24,310 bases of DNA from an uncultured Chthonomonadaceae bacterium (GCA_963835065.1 CAWIEK010000040.1:1-24310); one strand, 5' to 3'. Positions 9,192 to 23,304 are shown, numbered from the stretch's first letter. Translations and numbers: made by a program. The notes: generated by a model from the letters alone, not told the origin.

Positions 9192-11969
9192 TCAACAGGC
9201 AATATGCGCTTTCACATAGGCGCATGCCTGCTCAAGCGTCATTGCCGTTCCCTGCGCCCAAAGTGCAGCGTAAGCCTCCGGCGACAGGCAGGTCGTCGCA
9301 GCAGCAAGCATACGCGCTTTCTGCTCTTGCTCCTGCTCGGTGCGCTGCGCGCCTGCTGCTTCCCTGAGCGCCTGTACCGCGCCCGACAGAAGAATGGTTT
9401 GTTCGCTCAACCCGCTATCCCAGAACAGTTCCGCAAATGCGTCCAGCGTAAACGCGCTGCCATTTCTGTCGTTGAGCGCTATGCGTATTTGCAAACTATC
9501 CCATAGAAAGCGGTGCGCGGCGGCGAAATCACGTTGCCTGCGCGCTACATCACCGAGGTTGACCAGTTTGAATCCTGCTCCCCAGCGGTTGCCAAACTCT
9601 ATATCCAAGGCAAGGCCTTCCTCATAGTAGCGCCTTGCCTGTGGATAATCTTCAAGACAGCAGCAGACCACGCCCAGGTTGCCTAACATAGAAGCCATAT
9701 AGGCGCGATCATCACCCTCCCGGTAAATTGCCAGACTCCGCTCGAAGTGAGAACGCGCTTCTGCATACTCGGATGCGTTTACGAACAAAATGCCAAGGTT
9801 GTTCAGCGCAGCCGCAATGCCACGCTGATTTCCCACGCTTTGCCACAGATCGATACTCTGCTGGTACAAACGGCGCGCTTCCTCGCTTTGTCCCTGCGTA
9901 TTGGCAACGATAGCCAGGTTGTTCAGGGCTTCCGCCATGCCCGCCTGGTCGTTAATACTCTCGCTCAATCGCAGACTTTCTTCCAGCACGCGACGCGCTT
10001 CCTCGTATTCGGCTTGTCGCGTTGCCAGAACGCCCAGGCCATTCAGAGCTTTGGCGCGGAGGCGTTCGGCGGTTTGCGGGCTGCGCGCGAGCGCGCCACT
10101 GAGCCAGCTTCGGCCCTCCTGAAAGTGGCTGCGCATGGACCAGAAACGCCACAACGACGATGCCAGTTGCAGGCGCGTCGTGTTGTCCGTTGCCCACTTC
10201 AGCCCCGCGCGCAGGTTGTCGTGTTCGGCTTCCAGCGTTCGCAGCCAATGCGCCTGCTCCGCGCCGGTCAGTTTCGGCTCGGCTTCTTCGGCCAGTTCGA
10301 GGAAGCAGCGCAAATGGGCTTCGCGGGCGGGTTCGGTTTCCCCCGCTTCCTCCAATTTTTCCGCCGCGTACTCCCGCACGGTTTCCAGCAGGCGATAGCG
10401 CGGCGCGTCTTCCTGTTGGGCCGCGTGGCCTTCACGCCCGGCTTCCTCCACAACCACGAGCGAAGCGTCCGCCAGTTGCGACAGCAGGTTCAGCGCGTCT
10501 CCCGGTTCCAATTCGCCCCACTCGCACACCGACTCTGCGCCTTCCAGCGTCCAGCCGCCCGCGAACACGGCCAGGCGGCGCAGCAGCACGCGCTCACCGG
10601 GGGAAAGCAGATCGTGGCTCCAGTCAATCAGGGCGCGCAGGGTTTGATGCCGTTCCAGAACGTCGCGCTTGCCGCCCACCAGCAGCTTGAAACGCTTGTT
10701 CAGACGCTCCGCGAGCTGCTGCGGCGTCAGGGCGTTGACGCGGGCTGCGGCCAGTTCGATGGCAAGCGGGATGCCGTCCAACTGGCGGCAGATTTGAGTC
10801 ACGGCGGGCAGATTGGCCGGCGTCAGCGCAAAGTGGGGGCGCGCGGACGTGGCGCGTTCCACAAACAGGCGCAGCGAAGCGTGGCGCATGGCGTCTTCTA
10901 CTGTGAGCGCGGTTTGGGCATCGGGAACCGGCAGGGAAGGGATGCGCCAGGACTTTTCGCCCGCGATATGCAGGGGCTTGCGGCTGGTTGCCAGTACGCG
11001 CAGGCCGGGGCAGGCTTGCAGCAGCGCGTTGGCGGTTTGGGCGCAGGCGTCCACCAGATGCTCGCAATTGTCCAGCAGCAGCAGCAAATTCCGATCCCGC
11101 AGACTGTCGCACAGGGTTTGCAGCGCGTCCTGGTTCGGCTCATCCGCGATACCGAGCGTTTTGGCAATGGTTCGCGCCACCAATCCGCCGTCAGTCAGCG
11201 CGGCCAATTCCACAAACCAGACGCCATTGGCATAATCGTCCACGGCTTCGGCTGCCGTTTGCAGGGCAAGCCGGGTTTTGCCGCAGCCGCCCGCGCCCAG
11301 AAGCGTGAGCAGGCGCGTTTGCGTGAGCAGTTCACAAACGTCATTTAATTCCTGTTCCCTGCCGATGAACGAACTCAACTGTGACGGCAGATTGTGCTTG
11401 AACGCGGTCAGGGAGCGCAATGGCCCGAAATCGTCCAGCCAGTCGGGATGCTGCAGTTGGTAAATGCGCTCCGGGCGCTGCAGGTCTTTGAGATGGTGCA
11501 GGCCCAAATCGCGCAGGAACACCCCGCCTTCCAATTCGTCGCGCACCAGTTCGGCAGTGGCTTGCGTCAGGAGAATCTGCCCGCCGTAGCCTGTTGCGCG
11601 GACACGGGCACAGCGATTGACCGCCCCGCCATAATAATCCTCGGCGCGTAAATCGGCTTCCCCCGTATGCAGCGCCATGCGTACCTTGATGGGCGTGTCA
11701 GCAGGCCATTCTTCCGCCCGCAGCGCATGTTGAACAGCAACCGCCGCCCGCGCCGCATCCACCGCAGACGCAAACGTTACAAACAGGCTGTCGCCCTCGC
11801 CCCGCTTCTTGATCACCACGCCATTGTGCCGCGCGGTTCCCGCTTCGATCAAATCCTCATGGCGTGACAAGGCTACGCGCATCGCGTCGGGAAATTGATC
11901 CCACAGCGGGGTGCTGCGTTCCACATCGGTCAGCATAAACGTAACGGTTCCACTTGGTAAGGATGGCAT
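9192..11969 (-). CDS. Class III adenylate/guanylate cyclase domain + STAND (AP-ATPase/NB-ARC-like) + TPR protein
   Basis: VTFMLTDVERST, GEGDS and VRMALHTGEA...DYYGGAVNRCARV (cyclase). GAGGCGKT, LLLLDNCEH and LDGIPLAIELAAAR (STAND). Repeated ALNNLG TPR units. Confidence 0.93.
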   Translation of the reverse strand: MPSLPSGTVTFMLTDVERSTPLWDQFPDAMRVALSRHEDLIEAGTARHNGVVIKKRGEGDSLFVTFASAVDAARAAVAVQHALRAEEWPADTPIKVRMALHTGEADLRAEDYYGGAVNRCARVRATGYGGQILLTQATAELVRDELEGGVFLRDLGLHHLKDLQRPERIYQLQHPDWLDDFGPLRSLTAFKHNLPSQLSSFIGREQELNDVCELLTQTRLLTLLGAGGCGKTRLALQTAAEAVDDYANGVWFVELAALTDGGLVARTIAKTLGIADEPNQDALQTLCDSLRDRNLLLLLDNCEHLVDACAQTANALLQACPGLRVLATSRKPLHIAGEKSWRIPSLPVPDAQTALTVEDAMRHASLRLFVERATSARPHFALTPANLPAVTQICRQLDGIPLAIELAAARVNALTPQQLAERLNKRFKLLVGGKRDVLERHQTLRALIDWSHDLLSPGERVLLRRLAVFAGGWTLEGAESVCEWGELEPGDALNLLSQLADASLVVVEEAGREGHAAQQEDAPRYRLLETVREYAAEKLEEAGETEPAREAHLRCFLELAEEAEPKLTGAEQAHWLRTLEAEHDNLRAGLKWATDNTTRLQLASSLWRFWSMRSHFQEGRSWLSGALARSPQTAERLRAKALNGLGVLATRQAEYEEARRVLEESLRLSESINDQAGMAEALNNLAIVANTQGQSEEARRLYQQSIDLWQSVGNQRGIAAALNNLGILFVNASEYAEARSHFERSLAIYREGDDRAYMASMLGNLGVVCCCLEDYPQARRYYEEGLALDIEFGNRWGAGFKLVNLGDVARRQRDFAAAHRFLWDSLQIRIALNDRNGSAFTLDAFAELFWDSGLSEQTILLSGAVQALREAAGAQRTEQEQEQKARMLAAATTCLSPEAYAALWAQGTAMTLEQACAYVKAHIAC

Positions 11970-12574: not shown

Positions 12575-12657
12575 GGTGTTCAGGGTATTGGGTGTTCGGG
12601 TGTTGGGCTTCTGTCTTCTGCTTAATGTCTAATATCTAATGTCTAATGCCTAATGCC
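12575..12657. repeat. Bipartite tandem repeat spanning the GH stop to the rimI start
   Basis: GGTGTTC/GGTATTG units at 12575-12605, CTTCTG(T/C) x2, and TAAT(G/A)(T/C)C x5 at 12623-12657. Confidence 0.85.
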
Positions 12658-15526
12658 TTCCCCGGCATGTTATACAGAACGCGCGTCGGTTGCGCGCTAT
12701 GATGGATTTCTTTGCCGTCCAGGTAGACGCTGTAGCCTTTGAAGCCGGGGGCAACGTGCCCGCCCTTTTCATCCCACGCGATGCTTACGTCATGGCCGCG
12801 ATATGCCTGCCCGTCCAGCACGTAGTACGACCATGCGGAGGGCGGCAACAGAGAGTCAATTTCCAGCACGTTGTCATTGCGCGGAACCAGCCCGATCAGA
12901 TGCCGTATCAGCGGGTCTACCCAGGTGGAATGGTTGTAATCGCGCTGCGTGGTCTTCCACTCGCCCGTATCGCCGTTGTAAAATTCGCCTGTCCAGGGAT
13001 ACATTGGATTTTGGTTATGGTACTGTACGCGGGTAAACGATGCGAACAATTCCAGCAGCTTTTCCCGCGTGAGCGCGCCCGTTTGCGAATGGCTTGTTTG
13101 GAATTGGCTGGACGGATAATCGCTTGACTGGTAATGCCGGAGCGTATTCGCCATTGCGGTCATTACCAGGCTGTTGGCGTGGGGCCACGAGGGGCCGTTC
13201 CACATGCAGATGCTTCCACCCGGACCGACAGGCCAGCCGTTTTGGGCATACGCAGGGCAATCTTTGGACGCGGATGCAAGCGGCCAGCGCGTCCAAAATT
13301 GGTTAGCGTTGAGCGCGACATTCCAAATCGCTTCGTAACCCTTGCCCTTCGTTGGCATGTCGAACGCAAACGGGTACAGGCCGATGATTTCCTTTGTCGG
13401 CGCAGGCGCGTTGTCACTCGCCCGCAGGGAATGGAACCAGTGCGTATCGGGGTTCCACATTTGTGTCAGCAGCGCATCCCGCGTGTCGTCCGCCAATTGC
13501 TGCAAGGGCTGCGCGTCCTATTGCGGTTCAGTTCGCGGTAAATGTCGGCGGCGGCCTGCGCGTTGGCGAAGTTGTACGCGGTCAAATCCACGCGGCGCAG
13601 GGGCGTCATGTACTTGCGGTCTTCGCCACTGCCGCCGCCCGTTTTATAATCGGCAAACGCGAAGAAACTCGGCTGCCACTCCATGCCCGTCCACCAGTGG
13701 CTGTCCACCGTAAGCAAGGGACTGCCGTTTTCGCCGTACACCTTGCGCCAGCCCTGCGCGTTGCGGGCAACGGGGTCGGCAACCGCGCTCAAAATCTGCC
13801 TGTCCGGGTGAACCAGATATGCGTCCCATGCGGTAGAAGCGATCCAATCGGTATACTGCCCGCCCGCCTGTCCTTTGGGCGTGATGTGCGAGGGGAAAAT
13901 TCCGTCCGGGCGCGGGTTCTCCGTCCACGTCTGCAAATGCCCCCAGGCATAAGACGGGTCGCGCAGCCAGCGCGATTCATCCACCTGATGCCCCGCGCCA
14001 TAAGAAATCACGTTGGCGTACCAATCGGATGTCCACCTGCCTTCGGCAAACGCCCGATGCCGCAGCCGCCCCAGACGCGGGTACATGCTGTTCTTTTTGA
14101 TATTGTACCAGCGATGGGCGTACATCCTGGTTACAAGCGGGTCGGAACAGGCGAAATGCGCGGTATTGGCGTCGAACCAATGCTGATAGGCCGCTGTCTG
14201 CGTTCGGAGGGGGTCCGGCTGGATAAGTATAGCCGTCAGTTTCGTCTCGGCCTCCTCTTTCGTGTGCCCAACCGCGCAGGCAAACGTGTACTTGCGCGTT
14301 TCTCCCGGCTTCGAGTCCGTTGCAAACTGTGCGTATTCGCGCTCTGGCCGTCAGTTCCACTGGCGGCTAAAAACAACGGAAAGCCTTCCACATCGCGCTG
14401 TTCGGCGTACCCACGCGGCGCGGTGAGCGACGAGACCATGTGGATTGAAAGGGGAATGTTAAAGGAAAAAGTCAATTGGGAAGCGCTCGACGCGGCTTTG
14501 AGCGGCGAGTCCATGCGAATTTTCACCGTCTGTACACTTCGTGTCGAATCCGCACCATCACCCGCGTCACCAGCACATCGTTGTCCGTGATCCATTTGTC
14601 GGCGCTAAAGTTGAGGGTTGAGAGTTGATAGTTGATAGTCTGCTGCCATCTGACTTTTCTTGTCCCGTCTTCTTTTCTTTTCTCCTTTTTCTCTCCTGTT
14701 TCCTGTTCCCTGTTCCCTGTCATCCTTTGCGTAAGCCGGTTCCACGCCGTACAACCCCGTGTACAGGTTGGTTCCCTGGTTACGGAAGGTGAAGCGGATT
14801 TGCTCGGCTTGTTCGGGCGCGATGCCTGAAAAAGCGATGGAAGTTTGACCGGGCTTTGGGCGTGATGGGGCGCGTGGCGACGTCATGCCAACTGCCGCTT
14901 CGGAACAGTTCCACGCCAACGCTTTCGGCAGGTGGGCGCAGCCGCCGCCCTGCTCCACATCGGAGAAAAAGTACAGGTCAGCCCCACAACTTGCACGATT
15001 TGCCGAAGTCTACGGTGTAGGTGTCCGTTCGATGCTTGCTGTTCCAGCATGTCCAGCGCTTGGAAGGGGTAAACGGTTTGGAAAGCGGGTTGTTCACGTT
15101 GTCGGTCGTGTAGGTGAACGAGGCGGACGCGGTAAGCAGGCTGCCGGGCGTGCCGACAAGGTGAACGTGACTCGGCATGTACCGCGCTTTGTCCACAATG
15201 TAATTGTTGTCGCCGCTCCGAACGCTCACATCGAACAGGCCGGCATTGTCTTTGTCGCTGATATACAGCAGGTGAACGCCGTCCCGAAACGCCCACCCCT
15301 GCGGACTGGTCGCCCACACGATTTCGCCCGAAGCCCCAAACGGAACCTCAGCGTCGTAAGGCCGCGCCAAAACGGTATCCACGCTGCTGCGGCTGGAGGC
15401 GAAAACTCGGTGCGGCAACGGCTTGCCTGCTGCCAGGTGTACGGTTTGTCCCGCATGAGCCGCCTCCCCTCCCATTATAAAAAGCAATGCCGCCAATATC
15501 GGCAACTTCCTATGTGTTCTGTTCAT
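12636..15526 (-). CDS. Large secreted glycoside hydrolase, MGH1/GH63-like (alpha/alpha)6 domain with N-terminal beta domains; several frameshifts
   Basis: Signal peptide MNRTHRKLPILAALLFIMGGEAAHA after AGGAG. Fragments in alternating frames carry YAHRWY, ESRWLRDP, TGMEWQPS, WNGPSWPHANS, GEFYNGDTGEW, DYNHST and YRGHDVSIAWD. Confidence 0.82.
14610..14722. repeat. Bipartite tandem repeat inside the GH coding region
   Basis: GTTGA(GG/GA/TA) x4 at 14610-14637, a CT-rich run, and CCTGTT(T/C)-type units x4 at 14695-14722. Confidence 0.85.
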
Positions 15527-15704: not shown

Positions 15705-15760
15705 ATTCTTGCTTTTCGGGTAAATAACGCTTTATTTCAATGGTATCAATCCTGCAAAGT

Positions 15761-18608
15761 TCAATACGCAATGTTCTCCGCATTAAGGAGATGCACGTCA
15801 AATTGGAGCATCGCGTCGGGCGGAATCGTGCTGCCGACGCCTGCGCTGCCGTATCCTAACGACGGCGGAATTATCAGGCGGCACGTACCGCCGACGCGCA
15901 TGGTGGCAATGCCTTCTTCCCAGCCCTTGATAACCTCGTCCTTGCCAAGCGTGAATACAAACGGCTGGCCGTGCTTGCGCGACGTGTCGAAGACCGTGCC
16001 GTCCGCGAATTTGCCGACGTAGTGAACGGTTAATCGCTGTCCTTTGTGGGGCAACGCGCCGGTTCCTTTCACCAGATCAACGATCTTCAGCCCGGAGGCC
16101 GTGACGCGCATTTCGCCTTCCTGCCCCTCCAATGTACGCAGCAGTTTGCCGGTACGCGCGACCCATATTTGTACGCCCTGCGTGTAACTGCCCGTGACCA
16201 GCCTGTTGCCGGTTGGGTCGAAGGCGGCGGACGTGTAGCCCACATAAGGATCTTCCCCATCTGCCTTCAGCGCGCTGCCTGTTTTGGGAAGAAGCGGCAG
16301 GACACACAGGCGCGTGGCCTTTGCCGTTCCCAGAACGACCACTTCATGCATTCCAGAAAGCAGGTTCGCAACACGAGTTTCGCGGGGCGAGAAAACAAAT
16401 CCGGTACTCGACAGCGGGTACACAACCGGAGGCGTGGACAAACCCGTTTTTACAATCCAGCGGCGGGCAGGCGAGCCGTCGGCAACGATGGTTTTGCCGT
16501 CGCGCGCAAACGCAGCCATTGCAATCAGCGTCAGTTTGTCCCGATGATAATAGCGCTGCCCGGTACGCGCGTTCCAAACATCCATTCGGCTTTCGATTCC
16601 GGCGGCAACCGAAGGCGTTTTCGGGCTATCCACAATGCTGACAAGCGTATCGTCTACGGGTGAAAACGCCATGCGGGGAATGTCACGAACGCCGGTGTCA
16701 AATGCCTGCGCCTTTTTGCCGGTTTGCGCATCCCAAACGCAAACGGAGGAATGGGAGGCAGGATTCCAGCCGTACTTTGCCGCCGCCAGCAGTTTGCCGT
16801 CATGCGAAAACAGGACGGTGCTGTAACTTCCGCCCCCGGCAAGCGTTATGCGCCGTTTGCCGGTCTGCATGTCCCAAAGGCTGACCACGCCCTTGCTGTC
16901 CGGGATCGCCAGGGTTGCGCCGTCAGGAGAACACGCGAAATTATGCGTGAAACGTCCGCCGTTTTTGAAATGTACGCCGCGCTTTGCCGGTACGCGCATC
17001 CCACAGCACAATGGCGCTGCCACTGCCGAGGATCGTTTTGCCGTCCGGGGAATACGCCACCTGCCAGATGGTTTCCGCAGGCGCGTCCGCCGAATCCGAA
17101 CCAAAGGGGGAAGCGAACGCCGTTTGCAGCCATGCGGACGTGGAATTTTCCGATGTGGCAGATGGATTGTCGCCGGAAGTGGAGGGGGACCCTTCCGGGG
17201 CTGTTTGCGCAATGTTGTATCTGTCCGTATCCCGATTTCGATCACGGGAACTTCCGCTTCCTGCGAAAAGGCAAAGACAGATAAAGCCAGCAAATCCCAA
17301 GCCTACCATCCAAGTTATGGCTGCTGTGGCTACAGAATGAACGCTATTCGGGTCGGCAGGCGTATCCGGCATGGGCGGATACGCCTCGTTGTAAGGATTT
17401 ACAGGCTTGATGCTTGTGGGAGCAGGGGCTTTCGATCTTTCCCGTTCTCGCACGGCCTGCTCGGAGGGGAACGGGTCCAGGCCGCGCAACTGCGTTTGCT
17501 TGCGAAGACACCAGGGGCAGGCGTCCAGATGATTGCCGTAAAAGTGCTGCGGATTGGCGTCACAGCGCCTTAGATTGCGCCCCGCTTCATCCAATGCGCG
17601 CTGCCACGTTCGGGCGTCCGGGCGCAAATCGGGATTGTCATGCCCCTCCTCAAAGCACAGCACAAACAATTCGCGCAAAGCAGGCGGCAGCAATTCAAAC
17701 GGCGGCGCATAGCGCGTGTTGGCGCGATACGGCACGTCCCGGTTGCCATACGGAAAATGCCCCCGCGCAATCCGCTCCTCAAACGGCGGGGGGTCGCCTT
17801 CCTCCAGATACACCCCCGCAAACGGATGCGTCCCCTCCATCAGCATATGAAAAATCAGCACCGCCAGCGCGAAGAGGTCGTGGGACGGAGATAAGGATGA
17901 AGGAATTGTTGATTTTCGATTTTCGATTGCCGATTGAGTTTCTTCTGTTCCCTGTTTCCTGTTCCCTGTCTCCTCTTCTCCTTGTCTCCTTGTCCCCTTG
18001 TCTTCTGTCTCCCCCTCTTGCATTTCGGACGGCGTGAAATCGGGCGTGTGGACGGGGCAGGCGTAGACGTGGCCGGTTTGGGGGTCGCGCACCTGGAAGG
18101 AGTCGGCGTCTACCAGCGTGACGAGCGCGGTTTGGGTGACTAAGACGTTGGAGTGTTTGAGGTCGCCAATGACGTAGCCGCGCGCATGGAGGGCGCGAAC
18201 GGCGGCAGCCAGATTGCGGGCGGTGCGCAACAGATAGCGGTAATCGAAGAGAGGACATTCGATCAGGCGCGTTTGCGGGTTGTAAACATCAATCACCTGC
18301 ACGGCGTCATGGACGCGCCCCATTAAAAACCCGGTTACGCGCCCCACATCGTCCGCATCGCACAGCAGATCGAGCGGCCAGGCAATCGAAACGTGCCCGT
18401 CCCTGCCTTCCGGCACATCCGGCGGCAGGTCGCGCATGACGGTCAATTTGGCGATCCGCTCCGTCAGGTCTTTATCGGCCTCGTACACCTTCGCCGCCAA
18501 ATGGGGCGATCCCGACACGGCATAAACCCGCGCCTCGCCCCCCTTGCCGAGCGGCGCGCTCGTGTCTACGGTCAGCATTTCTGCATTGGATTGCCGTCGT
18601 AAGCGCAT
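15761..18608 (-). CDS. YegI/TerY-associated Ser/Thr kinase + Cys/His finger + TM + WD40 repeats + FKBP PPIase; one frameshift near 16964
   Basis: GKGGEARVY, AAKVY, IAWP, IGDLKHSN, DADSFQ, HDLFALAVLIFHMLMEGTHPFAG, CDANPQH...CPWC, TM WMVGLGFAGFICLCLFAG, and WD units (VAYSPDGKT, LFSHDGKL, AFDPTGNR). FKBP at 15761-16111 (VHYVG, FDTS, VIKGWEEG, IPPSLGYG). The two ORFs join at an A5 run. Confidence 0.85.
17891..18015. repeat. Bipartite tandem repeat in frame inside the kinase domain
   Basis: GATT(TTC/GCC/GAG) heptamers from 17911, CTGTT(C/T)C-type heptamers at 17945-17972, and CCTTGTC(T/C) octamers x3 at 17980-18003. Confidence 0.88.
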
Positions 18609-18618
18609 AGTTTCTCCA

Positions 18619-18740
18619 TAGGGGTCAGGATTCAGGGGTCAGGGGTCGGGAAGGAGCCTGCCTGCTCCTTTTGTTATGAATATAGTCAAGATTAACGGTA
18701 AACGACTCACTGACCCCTGACCCCTGAATCCTGACCCCTA
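18619..18740. repeat. 122-bp palindromic element with perfect 29-bp terminal IRs made of CAGGGGT heptamers (MITE-like)
   Basis: TAGGGGTCAGGATTCAGGGGTCAGGGGTC (18619-18647) and its exact reverse complement (18712-18740). Confidence 0.9.
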
Positions 18741-19409
18741 CTGACTTCTTCCCGGCCTCGGCAGCGGGCGCTGCTCCTCGCTTTCCAGACGCGCTTGCGA
18801 CAACGCGGACACGCTTTTGGAAAGGTAATCAATCATCTCCTGAAAACTCTGGTCCGCCAGGTCAATCGGCTCGCGGACGACCATTTGGCGCAGGCGGGCG
18901 ATGTCGGCTCCACGCACCCCGATGGCGAAAAACAACACGCTGCGCTTGGCTTCTTCCTCGGCAATGCGCCGAATTGCGCTTTCCGTCACGTGTTCCGGCT
19001 CGTCTTCGGGCTTACCGTCCGTAATCAGGAAGACATGCGGGCGGAAATAATCAATTTCCAGTTCGCGCAGGGCTTTCTTGTGCTTTTGCAGCAGGTCGAG
19101 CGCCTGATGAACCCCACTGCCCATGTGCGTATAGCCGCCCGTCGTTAGAACAGGCGGCACAAAGCGGCTGATAGGGACGAATTCCTGCGCCACCGTGACC
19201 TTACTATCAAAGGTGACGACAGCCACATCCACCCGTTTCGAGGCAACCGGGTCTTTGCGCAAATTTTCGTGCAGGGTGCGCAGGCCGGCGTTCAATTGGG
19301 CAATGGCGTTGCCGCGCATGGAGTCGGACGTGTCCAGCAGCAGGACGCACGGACAGCGCGGCTCCGGGTTGTTATAAAACTCAACCATGTCTTCCAGATT
19401 GGAGTTCAC
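18738..19409 (-). CDS. TerY/YegL-family vWA domain protein (223 aa)
   Basis: NPEPRCPCVLLLDTSDSM (MIDAS DxSxS), GYTHMG, YFRPHVFLITDGKP, FFAIGV. GTG 19409 follows AAAGGAGG. Confidence 0.92.
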   Translation of the reverse strand: MNSNLEDMVEFYNNPEPRCPCVLLLDTSDSMRGNAIAQLNAGLRTLHENLRKDPVASKRVDVAVVTFDSKVTVAQEFVPISRFVPPVLTTGGYTHMGSGVHQALDLLQKHKKALRELEIDYFRPHVFLITDGKPEDEPEHVTESAIRRIAEEEAKRSVLFFAIGVRGADIARLRQMVVREPIDLADQSFQEMIDYLSKSVSALSQARLESEEQRPLPRPGRSQ

Positions 19410-19434: not shown

Positions 19435-20979
19435 TTACTCTGTTGCGCCTGCGGCTTTGAGCGCTTCAACAACGTCCGCGCTATGGTACTGAGTCGCCGC
19501 GTGGAGGGGCGTAACTCCCTTGTTGTTCTTCAAGTGAACATCCGCGCCCCGCGCAATCAGGAATTTGGCGATTTCAGGATGGCCCCATTGTATCGCCAGC
19601 AAGAGCGGCGTTGTGCCGTTGGAATCACGGGCGTTGATGTCCGCGCCTCGTTCCAGCAAAAACGTTGCGGCGGCGATGATCTTTTTGTTCTCTGCTTCGC
19701 GCCAATTGGTCACGGCGGACGCAGAATTGGTTTTAGGAAAGGCGCTTGGAAAAGCGAAAATCGCGCTATGCAGGGGCGTTTTGCCGTCCGCGTCATGCGC
19801 GTTGACGTCGGCGCCTTTTTCCAGCAGGGTTTTCATCAAATCCAGACTGCCCGCTGTCGCCGCTGCCGACAAATACCGTTGCTGCCAGATCGTTGTGCCG
19901 TTGATATCCGCGCCCTTTTCCACCAGAAGTTGCGCCATTTCCAGCGAACCCCACATAAAGGCGTCCGCCAGCAGGCTGTGTGTTGTAAAAAAGCCTTTGT
20001 TGACATCCGCCCCGCGTTCAATCAGCAGGCGGGCGGCGGCAACGTTATCCGCGCGAACGGCCACCGCAAGCGGCGAAAACAAACCCTCTCCTCCTGCCGC
20101 TGCACCTTTGTCCAGCAGGTCGCGCGCCAGCGCGAGGTTCTGCTGGACAATGGCAAAATTGAGCAACGCGGGTCCATCCGCGGAGCGAACATCGAGAACC
20201 GCGCCCTGCGTTTGCAGAGTTTGCACGATTGCCGCCTTGCCGCGATTGGCGGCGTAGCCCAATGCGGATAATCCGGCGTTGTCGCGCAGGCTGACATCGG
20301 CGCTGCGCTGAAGCAACAGGCGAACGGCATCCTGATTGGCGTTTTGCGCGGCGACCATCAGCGCGGTTTTGCCGTCCCGGTCCTGCGCGTTGATGTTCGC
20401 GCCCGCATCCAGCAGAAGATGCAGCGTGGAAGCGTTGCCGCTCCCACTCGGCTCCCACGTCAAGACGATCTGGCCGGACTGCGCATCTGTTGTCTTCACC
20501 GCGCCCAAACCAAGCAGATACTGCGCGGGTTCCGAGCGCAAGCCCTGTTCGTCGCGCAGGGAAAAGGTGAGATGCTCCCCCGAATATCCCAATCCGGTCT
20601 GATGCCCCATGTCGCTGATTTGCCGCAACTGCCGGGCGCGCTCATACACGCGCTCGAAGGAATTGGGATTGTAACCGGCGGCCAGCAGCAGCGCGGTTCG
20701 CCCCTGCCCATCGCGCGCATCCAGACGCGCGCCCCGCGCCAATGCCCCGCGTACGGCTTCCAGGTTGTCGAAGGCCGCGTTTGCCAGCAGCGACTCGTCG
20801 TGAACGCTCAAACCCTTCGCCACGCTCAAGCCGGGAAGCGGCGGCACGGACGAAGCCGCAGACTGCGCGTTCGCGCCCGGCGTCAGCAGGCAAAGACCGC
20901 CAAGCGCCAGCGCCATCCACAAGCGCGGCGTAGCGATGCCAAAACCAGAAGAAGTCTGTTGAGTCATGGGAACAGTCAC
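19435..20979 (-). CDS. Secreted ankyrin-repeat protein
   Basis: Signal peptide RLWMALALGGLCLLTPGANA. Many GAD(V/I)NA.D..G.T(P/A)L units. Start is GTG 20979 or ATG 20967. Confidence 0.92.
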   Translation of the reverse strand: MTVPMTQQTSSGFGIATPRLWMALALGGLCLLTPGANAQSAASSVPPLPGLSVAKGLSVHDESLLANAAFDNLEAVRGALARGARLDARDGQGRTALLLAAGYNPNSFERVYERARQLRQISDMGHQTGLGYSGEHLTFSLRDEQGLRSEPAQYLLGLGAVKTTDAQSGQIVLTWEPSGSGNASTLHLLLDAGANINAQDRDGKTALMVAAQNANQDAVRLLLQRSADVSLRDNAGLSALGYAANRGKAAIVQTLQTQGAVLDVRSADGPALLNFAIVQQNLALARDLLDKGAAAGGEGLFSPLAVAVRADNVAAARLLIERGADVNKGFFTTHSLLADAFMWGSLEMAQLLVEKGADINGTTIWQQRYLSAAATAGSLDLMKTLLEKGADVNAHDADGKTPLHSAIFAFPSAFPKTNSASAVTNWREAENKKIIAAATFLLERGADINARDSNGTTPLLLAIQWGHPEIAKFLIARGADVHLKNNKGVTPLHAATQYHSADVVEALKAAGATE

Positions 20980-21017: not shown

Positions 21018-21530
21018 TCATGAGCGTATTTTCGTAAAGAACAACACCAAACCGTCATCCACCATTACGGGAACGCCGTAAGCAACCGGCTGCTCATGCG
21101 TCATCAATCCCCTGCCGTCCGGCACATACCCGCGCTGTACATACATTCGCTGCGCCGCGCCATAATCCTGCGTCATGCCCACTCCGATTCCAACAAATGA
21201 CGAACATTCAAAAATTCTGGCTTCCGCCTCATCCATCAGCGCGGTTCCAATGCCCATGCGCCGCACATCGGGCAGCACGTTGAAGTCCCGGATTTCGGGG
21301 ATACGCGCGTCCCGAAACGGCGGATAATCGGATTGCCAGACAATCGTGAGATACCCGGCAAAACGTTCCGCTACCCACGCGGTCAGCACGGTTCGCGCTC
21401 CGGCCTGCTGCTCGGCGAAATAACGCGCGTACTGCGCTTCGGGCTTGTTCCAGCCGATGGCGGCAAACGCGGCGGCAATCGGAGCAATATCGCGCGCTTC
21501 CAACAAGCGCAGGGTATACAAGGAAGTCAT
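21018..21530 (-). CDS. GNAT-family N-acetyltransferase
   Basis: EIRDFNVLPDVRRMGIGTALM (motif A) and DYGAAQRMYVQRGYVPDG. Confidence 0.93.
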   Translation of the reverse strand: MTSLYTLRLLEARDIAPIAAAFAAIGWNKPEAQYARYFAEQQAGARTVLTAWVAERFAGYLTIVWQSDYPPFRDARIPEIRDFNVLPDVRRMGIGTALMDEAEARIFECSSFVGIGVGMTQDYGAAQRMYVQRGYVPDGRGLMTHEQPVAYGVPVMVDDGLVLFFTKIRS

Positions 21531-22248: not shown

Positions 22249-22780
22249 TTGGAGCGTCCGGCGCGAACACGAGAGCATTGGCTTGCCGACCTGAGTATCA
22301 ACCATGTCGAACGCTTCATTTTGCGGCAAGGTCACAGCGTACAACGTGTGCAGTTTGATTATGGCTATGACTTGTTTATGCAGACGTTCGACTATGGAGG
22401 AGATGCCGCGCGCAAACGAGGAACTTATGAGGGTGGCCTTGTGTACTTTCAATTCAAGGCGACTATAAACTCACGGTGCTGGAAGACGGCAGGACTATTG
22501 CCCTCCCCGTTGCCCGCAGGCATGTGGAGTTGTGGCGCACGGAAACAATGCCGGTGATCCTGATCATGTATGATATGGCGGCAGAGCGCGCGTACTGGCT
22601 ATACGTACAACATCATTTACGTACCACGCGCCAAACTTGGCCTGCGGCTCAAAAAGAAGTGTCGTTAAGAATGTCCATGAGCAATATCGTGGATGAGAAC
22701 GCCATAGAACAGTTCAGACAGTTTAAGGCAGAAGCCTTGCGGCAGATCGAAGAAGAAACCAATGTCGATCAATCATGTTG
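22249..22780 (+). CDS. DUF4365-like PD-(D/E)xK-fold protein; frameshift near 22465, end approximate
   Basis: AGGAGG before TTG 22249. REHWLADLSINHVER, DYGYDL, YFQFKAT, then in the next frame MPVILIMYD...AYWLYVQ. Confidence 0.75.
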
Positions 22781-23109
22781 CCCATCAGCCCGTCCCTCCG
22801 GACGCTTAAGTGAAATTCTGATCCGGCTTGGCTTTGTGCGCCGCGATACGGCAGAGTATATCGCCTTCAAAAATCCTGCATACGACGCGCTCATTGCCTT
22901 CCCTGTGATTCAACCGCAGACGCCTGTACGCCCCGGCCCTGTTGGCAGCGCAGGCAACCGTCACGGCGAGTGGTGTCACTACGAAAGTACCGTGGGGCGG
23001 ATTATCGCCAGTGGCGTAATGGAAGACGCGCGCAGTTTAGCCGGAAAACGGCAGTCGCGCAAAGCGAAGCAGCATAAGGGTGAGGAAGCGAGCGGGAATA
23101 CAAACATAA
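22762..23109 (+). CDS. HicA-like small protein, frameshifted; bounds approximate
   Basis: GRLSEILIRLGFVRRDTAEYIAFKNPAYDALIAFPVIQPQTPVRP, then in another frame LLAAQATVTASGV. Helix-GF-beta-beta-beta-helix pattern. Confidence 0.45.
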
Positions 23110-23149
23110 GCAGGCAAGCAAGACGCGGAATGTCTTTGCCTGCCTGCTT
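23108..23149. terminator. Hairpin between convergent genes
   Basis: AAGCAGGCAAGCAAGAC-GCGGAAT-GTCTTTGCCTGCCTGCTT. Confidence 0.6.
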
Positions 23150-23304
23150 CAGCCTATTTAACTTTGTTGTCGTTCTTACGCCGTAACGGGCTGGCGTTCT
23201 ACGGCTTTGCGGAAGGATAGGACGTTTTGCCTGCTCGATTTGTTCGGGTGTTGGCGCGGTCAACGCAAAGGCGATAAGTTCCTGACGCTTGCACTACCGT
23301 CATG

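Follow-up and report, generated by a model that had tools for sequence, protein, structure and literature searches.

The TerY-P system combines a vWA protein, a PP2C phosphatase and a kinase with a zinc ribbon, and the accessible portions of the literature present it as a hypothesised metal-sensing switch, the role of the vWA protein being only a hypothesis there, and describe an anti-phage variant (PMC11090510, PMC10542128, PMC4978471, PMC7699616). According to the available part of a report on YegI, the corresponding kinase of E. coli, autophosphorylation requires a DSD motif and Ser162 (bioRxiv 10.1101/819920). We have analysed a locus of this type in an uncultured Chthonomonadaceae bacterium (GCA_963835065.1 CAWIEK010000040.1:1-24310). 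The window, i.e., the whole stretch of DNA analysed, has 24,310 nucleotides, and the locus occupies positions 15,761 to 19,409 of it. On its minus strand there is a TerY/YegL-type vWA gene, then the open reading frame (ORF) of a YegI-type kinase and then, in another frame that ends at 15761, WD40 repeats followed by an FKBP-type prolyl isomerase domain (Table 1). Our overall reading, for which belief and doubt are about evenly matched, is that of a duplicated TerY-P branch in which the kinase has become a receptor, the vWA protein docks on it, likely as a brake, and the PP2C of a complete triad found elsewhere in the genome likely resets it.

A receptor-like kinase fused to WD40 and FKBP domains

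After deletion of a single base the two frames give a fusion of 948 amino acids made up of the YegI-type kinase, a putative zinc finger, one transmembrane (TM) helix, a WD40 propeller and the FKBP domain (FKBP_C, E=9e-33), the last two sharing a frame between about 16960 and 15761. This order, with a linker after the helix and the vWA gene in front, had been proposed in an earlier note made from the sequence alone, and it is borne out by the ORFs, Pfam, the alignments to YegL and YegI and hydropathy. In three relatives (P0002, P0003 and P0004) a single frame holds the kinase-TM-WD40-FKBP protein in full, with 933-935 amino acids and 61-65% identity to the window ORF, and the locus very likely encodes one fused protein as well.

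The vWA protein has 45% identity to YegL of E. coli (E=3e-56) and its metal ion-dependent adhesion site (MIDAS) is complete (D26-x-S28-x-S30, T94, D131). The kinase is 28% identical to YegI over 378 amino acids (E=1e-38), the C-x5-H...CPWC finger included. Its residues K40, D149, N154, D167, D169 and S170 are invariant across 35 aligned kinases, S170 being the equivalent of Ser162 in YegI. A kinase domain at the N-terminus, one TM helix and a folded C-terminal part give the protein the layout of a single-pass receptor Ser/Thr kinase such as PknB or PknD, which supports the receptor-like arrangement that had been suggested for it. Past the activation segment the kinase carries an in-frame insert of ~40 amino acids (17904-18020) made of 7-nt repeats that are present ~100 times genome-wide; homologous kinases hold other inserts at the same position.

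Pairing of the vWA protein with the kinase

Kinases with a DxK[HQ]xN catalytic loop formed a clade (96% in the Shimodaira-Hasegawa-like approximate likelihood ratio test), and the vWA proteins encoded next to them formed a matching, long-branched one (100%, 7 rows), both in quick trees. Prediction of the complex between the vWA protein and the kinase of the window gave a score of 0.63, the best of three controls reaching 0.01. The mark used for such scores is attained in 116 of 157 cases by solved complexes and in two of 215 by mismatched pairs, counts that hold roughly since they come from our own alignments. At least 65% of the contacts were common to the prediction runs, with a partner pLDDT (predicted value of the local distance difference test) of at least 76. 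A profile search found no close solved relative of the vWA or the kinase family.

In the predicted complex the contacted parts of the kinase are residues 104-113 (hinge and helix alphaD), 152-153 (catalytic loop) and 258-276 (alphaF-alphaG loop), besides two later loops. The vWA protein would contribute residues 9-17, 54-58, 111-123 and 156-157, none of which belongs to the MIDAS, so that it would bind through the face opposite the metal site. PKI binds PKA at the corresponding substrate-docking surface, and by this analogy the prediction places the vWA protein on the substrate-docking face of the kinase. The positions diagnostic of the kinase clade are enriched at the interface (four of 29, vs. 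four of 319 elsewhere; p=0.002, with kin that are not independent). The C-termini of the vWA proteins in alignment A3 mostly read LPPPGW; the DxK[HQ]xN-associated clade loses the Trp and has LRELE instead of YRANG near the predicted interface.

Several results weigh against this reading. The complex test is passed by close cousins of a true partner too, and so does not discriminate cognate pairs. The diagnostic positions of the vWA protein are not enriched at the interface (4/23 vs. 15/195, p=0.12) and the interface residues are not significantly more conserved (p=0.15 for the kinase, 0.06 for the vWA protein), while identity to E. coli is limited to five of the 30 kinase interface residues (YegI), vs. 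12 of 23 on the vWA side (YegL). Taking both sides together, we consider it probable, on the strength of the models, that the vWA protein binds the kinase of the window.

What the bound vWA protein would do is a closer question, and a brake, rather than an adaptor or activator, is a choice on which we are evenly divided. As a substrate adaptor or activator, the vWA protein would catch a target with its free MIDAS face and present it to the kinase; the predicted interface does leave the invariant MIDAS residues free, and the contacts lie beside the substrate groove with the glycine-rich loop outside them. However, they include H152 and S153 of the catalytic loop as well as the alphaF-alphaG loop, i.e., the surface that by analogy PKI occupies, and a kinase devoid of a brake would be unopposed in the loci that have no PP2C. 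We hold the adaptor or activator role to be possible but less likely than not. A predicted interface, together with a genome that has two paralogous vWA-kinase sets, opens what the vWA protein does in TerY-P to direct tests of binding, cross-binding and inhibition.

The outer domains

In a set of 254 YegI-type kinases, whose domains were classed by local phmmer from the top matches and which is not a census, the finger was present in 253 and one predicted TM helix after the finger in 157. WD40 repeats were found in 94, TPR in 44, FGE-like domains in 11, ankyrin repeats in two and FKBP in three. The idea that the architecture is undescribed was therefore only partly upheld: kinase-TM-WD40 proteins are common and it is the FKBP tail that is rare. 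The four kinases with FKBP fall into a single clade (98%, quick tree) whose sister, P0005, has no FKBP domain, and the tail seems to have been gained once and recently. The WD40-FKBP part had no match at E<=1e-40 in 400 other genomes of the phylum, a sample outside which lies G031, nor any in G032, a genome of the same genus. A metagenome scan with P0004 gave no match and an alignment-based scan gave eight loci, none with FKBP; a protein search with the WD40-FKBP part retrieved, beyond P0002-P0004, generic WD40 and multi-FKBP proteins. The donor of the FKBP domain could not be told apart, its identity being 51% to an FKBP with a signal peptide and 57% (partial) to one without it.

The model of full-length P0004, which also shows a helix at 420-439, was poor overall (pLDDT 51), and only its propeller was used; the propeller has seven blades and its top fold match is the WD40 domain of PkwA (5yzv, E=2e-21). 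The FKBP_C domain of the window scores 113 bits vs. a Pfam cut-off of 21.1 and matches single-domain FKBPs of the PDB down to E=1e-33. For its pocket we assumed ten residues in FKBP12 numbering (Y26, F36, D37, R42, F46, V55, I56, W59, Y82 and F99). Comparing by eye, the window copy retains nine of them (R42 is replaced by H) and P0004 all ten, while P0002 has lost seven and P0003 five. Since two of the four pockets are degenerate, the suggestion that the outer part senses macrolide-like ligands is weakened, and macrolide binding as a shared function was rejected.

The ratio of nonsynonymous to synonymous substitution rates (dN/dS) was calculated against L001, a locus in the same-genus genome G031, and was 0.10 for the vWA gene, 0.15 for the kinase, 0.37 for the WD40 part and 0.30 for the FKBP domain. 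These values indicate a core that is conserved and an outer part that changes faster, all under purifying selection. The kinase is probably cytoplasmic and the propeller and FKBP domain periplasmic, an orientation drawn from the single TM helix and the absence of any N-terminal hydrophobic segment. The positive-inside rule gives it no help: there are no K/R before the helix in five of five proteins, and four after it in the window copy.

That the FKBP domain contributes to sensing is somewhat doubtful. Two of the four copies have a degenerate pocket, which counts against it, and degenerate pockets can still bind peptides. Alternatively, the tail would be an incidental, recent and decaying fusion, the working unit being a kinase-finger-TM-WD40 receptor whose propeller the FKBP domain would at most help to fold. 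The rarity of the tail, its restriction to a single clade with an FKBP-less sister, the pocket residues lost and the searches of the phylum speak for such a fusion; against it stand the purifying selection on the FKBP domain, a frame preserved in four of four sequences and the pocket retained in the window copy and P0004. We regard an incidental tail as rather unlikely. Unless its pocket proves to be a sensor, the FKBP fusion is a narrow, lineage-level curiosity.

The phosphatase and the family survey

No PP2C gene lies between the vWA gene and the kinase, either in the window, where the gap is 129 nt, or at the L001 locus. Where triads have the PP2C gene, the gap is occupied by a perfect 29-bp inverted repeat. 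The predicted hairpin (18619-18740), made of heptamer repeats, is very stable and ends at the ribosome-binding site of the kinase, and a similar element occurs in L001; the hairpin could hold the level of the kinase below that of the vWA protein.

A search for a PP2C partner elsewhere in the genome, proposed in the earlier note as a check, was successful: a full vWA-PP2C-kinase-TM-WD40 triad is found on contig C25, duplicated on C37, with a PP2C 36% identical to PphC. Between the PP2C and the kinase of this triad there is a gene of the 23S rRNA-IVP four-helix family (L032:5079-5441 in G000:C25). The same note had described the locus as TerY-P-like and lacking its phosphatase, which holds for the absence of PP2C and for the ancestry. 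The loss is not distinctive, since the genome keeps a full triad and pairs without PP2C are frequent in the family, and we rejected it as a novelty.

Of 68 genomes of the order, 43 had a match to the kinase, 41 to PP2C and 42 to vWA; for the family without this genome (41 genomes) the figures were 38, 36 and 37. The 58 kinase loci with context comprised 25 triads, 15 vWA-kinase pairs, 13 orphans, three PP2C-kinase pairs and two at contig edges, a tally that includes two identical-sequence pairs and both loci of this genome and excludes L063, L064, L065 and L067 (broken or cut). A single PP2C was counted by hand in six of the eight genomes with two or more vWA genes. Two nearly complete genomes illustrate the dispersal: G034 has two vWA genes, two kinase genes and a single PP2C gene, no partner adjoining either kinase, and in G047 the vWA, PP2C and kinase genes lie at three distant sites. 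The survey points to TerY-P in this family as a signalling system that is nearly universal, has its genes dispersed and varies in its outer domains, rather than as a mobile defence island.

The simplest reading is that the PP2C of the complete triad acts in trans on the kinase of the window, and we think it fairly probable. Relatives are not independent samples, however, and copy numbers are lower bounds, most genomes being fragmented. G032, 97% complete and of the same genus, holds triad-type genes only, which counts against our overall reading. Kinases and vWA proteins of the DxKHSN subtype are also found as full triads (L074-L077), for which reason the locus probably derives from a second triad minus its PP2C. 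As judged from the sequences, it is likely a TerY-P-derived pair on a duplicated TerY-P branch, the three-gene triad being incomplete at this place. Triads of the DxKHSN type are preceded by two similar genes of ~600 amino acids (L074:738-4396, L035:8851-12606), the L074 pair having no Pfam match.

Proposed mechanism

At rest, the vWA protein would hold the kinase off through the face opposite its metal site, at the hinge and alphaD, the catalytic loop and the alphaF-alphaG loop. In the periplasm, the propeller and the FKBP domain might bind proline-containing or misfolded envelope proteins and in this way cluster the receptor. Once released by the vWA protein, the clustered kinase would autophosphorylate at S170, and the PP2C of the complete triad would reset it. 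Ligand-induced dimerisation and activation of the kinase are suggested by analogy only, as the accessible part of the YegI report gives its autophosphorylation as second order (10.1101/819920). More broadly, TerY might be a dedicated metal-gated subunit docking on YegI-type kinases, and Chthonomonadaceae might have made the triad into a family of insulated receptor pathways (cognate pairs, swappable outer sensors and a shared phosphatase), the FKBP pocket of the present member receiving envelope proteins that contain proline or are unfolded, or else molecules like FK506. We consider this generalisation unlikely; if true, the member in the window would be an envelope-folding sensor signalling by Ser/Thr phosphorylation.

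Possible anti-phage role and the frameshift

The locus could also be an anti-phage variant of TerY-P whose outer domains detect attachment or injection proteins of phages, the unopposed kinase then arresting the cell. A TerY-P tested in E. coli protects against T7-like phages, as far as the source could be consulted (PMC7699616), and the present locus is patchy within the genus with an outer part that changes fast. Nevertheless, PADLOC gave no match for the vWA protein and only weak generic ones for the kinase. At the window locus no link to ter, DNA-processing or defence genes was found apart from a split DUF4365 gene ~3 kb upstream, which we also list among the points against. The neighbours are ankyrin, GNAT and glycoside hydrolase genes, and RNase PH-like and dehydrogenase-like ones in L001 (named by reading translations). 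The system is, besides, nearly universal in the family, with genes often scattered among housekeeping ones, and the tested defence kinase is described, in the part of the source available, with an OB-fold tail (PMC11090510). A defence role, raised in the earlier note, is thus unsupported here; it is improbable and has the least support among the three rivals (an adaptor vWA, an incidental FKBP and anti-phage defence).

Regarding the frameshift, a cluster mate on another contig (P0375, 98% identical) differs from the window kinase at four of the first 546 residues. Across the site it reads ...ARRSFQNGGRFTHNF, which is the product expected if one A were removed from the 16962-16966 run, and agrees with the downstream frame in 111 of 114 residues; P0375 itself breaks, but at another place. 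The single frameshift predicted at this run is thus supported in both its position and the single protein it interrupts. Reads were checked near 16960-16970, with a mixed outcome: a contig of run X2, ~90% identical and spanning 15753-17882, is one base shorter, the gap being placed at 16971 amid nearby mismatches, and its remaining listed indels total multiples of three, while the closest run, X1, had no cover there.

Both the read-through of the near-identical P0375 and the unbroken fusions of three relatives make an error of the assembly the very likely origin of the frameshift. Duplicate contigs of the assembly show 270 one-base indels in 198 kb, some of them possibly strain differences, and of the two copies of the triad kinase that on C37 carries a frameshift, the one on C25 being whole. 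An MGH1-like glycoside hydrolase (12636-14125) and the DUF4365 gene (22249-23186) are each broken up into two frames, which would fit indels of the assembly. Some 200 kb of its sequence is doubled at 95-99% identity (C25/C37, C26/C62, C21/C30 and others), which indicates a mixture of strains or haplotigs.

A genuine frameshift, with the strain making a truncated kinase of 555 amino acids and perhaps a separate FKBP from the ATG at 16111, is very improbable: no read of the exact strain covers the site and a purine-rich motif precedes that ATG, but the assembly is indel-prone, P0375 reads through and the motif is absent from L001. The internal FKBP start previously pointed out (AGGAAGG...ATG 16111) is present in the window, yet L001 has the Met without the motif and P0003 and P0004 have no Met; a conserved internal start was rejected.

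Features and neighbours of the locus

Table 1. Coordinates of the features described for the vWA-kinase locus, counted from the first nucleotide of the window.
Feature	Position	Strand	Remarks
TerY/YegL-type vWA gene	18738..19409	-	223 aa; Pfam VWA E=9e-14; similarity to YegL
Perfect inverted repeat, 29 bp	18619..18740	.	genome-wide heptamer repeats; -80.8 kcal/mol, z -9.1
Kinase ORF	18608-16941	-	555 aa, uncorrected frame
YegI-type Ser/Thr kinase domain	17577..18608	-	GKGGEA, K40, DLKHSN (D149/N154), D167-A-D169-S170; model pLDDT 89.8
Putative zinc finger C-x5-H-x8-CPWC	17508..17564	-	sequence pattern
Single predicted TM helix, aa 430-448	17265..17321	-	hydropathy; helix 420-439 in model of P0004
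Ser/Thr-rich linker	17073..17261	-	30% Ser/Thr; poorly conserved
A5 run with one extra base	16962..16966	-	very likely assembly error
WD40 beta-propeller	16127..17072	-	seven blades in model of intact homologue P0004
FKBP-type prolyl isomerase domain, C-terminal	15761..16126	-	pocket largely intact in window copy

A stretch of 25 nt separates the vWA gene from the end of an ankyrin-repeat gene (19435-20979), whose N-terminus resembles a signal peptide and which is preceded by a GNAT gene (21018-21530). L001 has the same GNAT-ankyrin-vWA order; in G032 the GNAT gene was not found. Farther away (9192-11969) the window encodes an adenylate/guanylate cyclase-STAND NTPase-TPR protein of 925 amino acids. 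Promoter and terminator scans stayed at chance level.

Comparison with known systems

With the E. coli yegL-pphC/yegK-yegI genes, as described in the accessible part of the report (bioRxiv 10.1101/819920), the locus shares the YegL-type vWA protein, a kinase in which DxD replaces DFG, the serine corresponding to Ser162 (S170) and the C-terminal finger. It differs in having no PP2C gene, in the catalytic loop (DLKHSN, DVNQNS in YegI) and in topology, since YegI is given there with two TM helices and both ends inside, while the kinase of the window has one and a predicted outer propeller with FKBP. PkwA of Thermomonospora curvata and cyanobacterial kinase-WD40(7) proteins are likewise Ser/Thr kinases with a C-terminal WD40 propeller, but in the passages available they are not described as YegI-type, vWA-linked or FKBP-fused (PMC6113231, PMC2176072).

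Nearer relatives are the triads of Chthonomonadaceae (C25/C37, L074-L077), in which all three families are the same; at its end the C25 kinase likewise has TM segments and WD40, and L074-L077 share the vWA and kinase subtype of the window. These triads retain PP2C as part of the operon, and FKBP is absent from them. A kinase that ends in a prolyl isomerase is also known from Mycobacterium avium paratuberculosis (gi|41407147), with a Pro_isomerase domain that is presumably of the cyclophilin type. In the portion of the source available, this protein has, like the window fusion, a kinase, a TM helix and a C-terminal prolyl isomerase, which gives the kinase-prolyl isomerase pairing a precedent, but the domain is Pro_isomerase, not FKBP, and neither a propeller nor a TerY partner is listed (PMC1262709).

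Our literature search retrieved no kinase-WD40-FKBP fusion and no TerY-kinase complex, although the primary TerY-P papers or their supplements may list pairs without PP2C or kinase-TM-WD40 forms. The TerY-P ancestry, the PP2C-less pairs and the kinase-TM-WD40 architecture are thus of a known kind; what appears to be new, from the sequences and models, is the FKBP tail on a kinase-TM-WD40 protein and the predicted docking of the vWA protein on its kinase.

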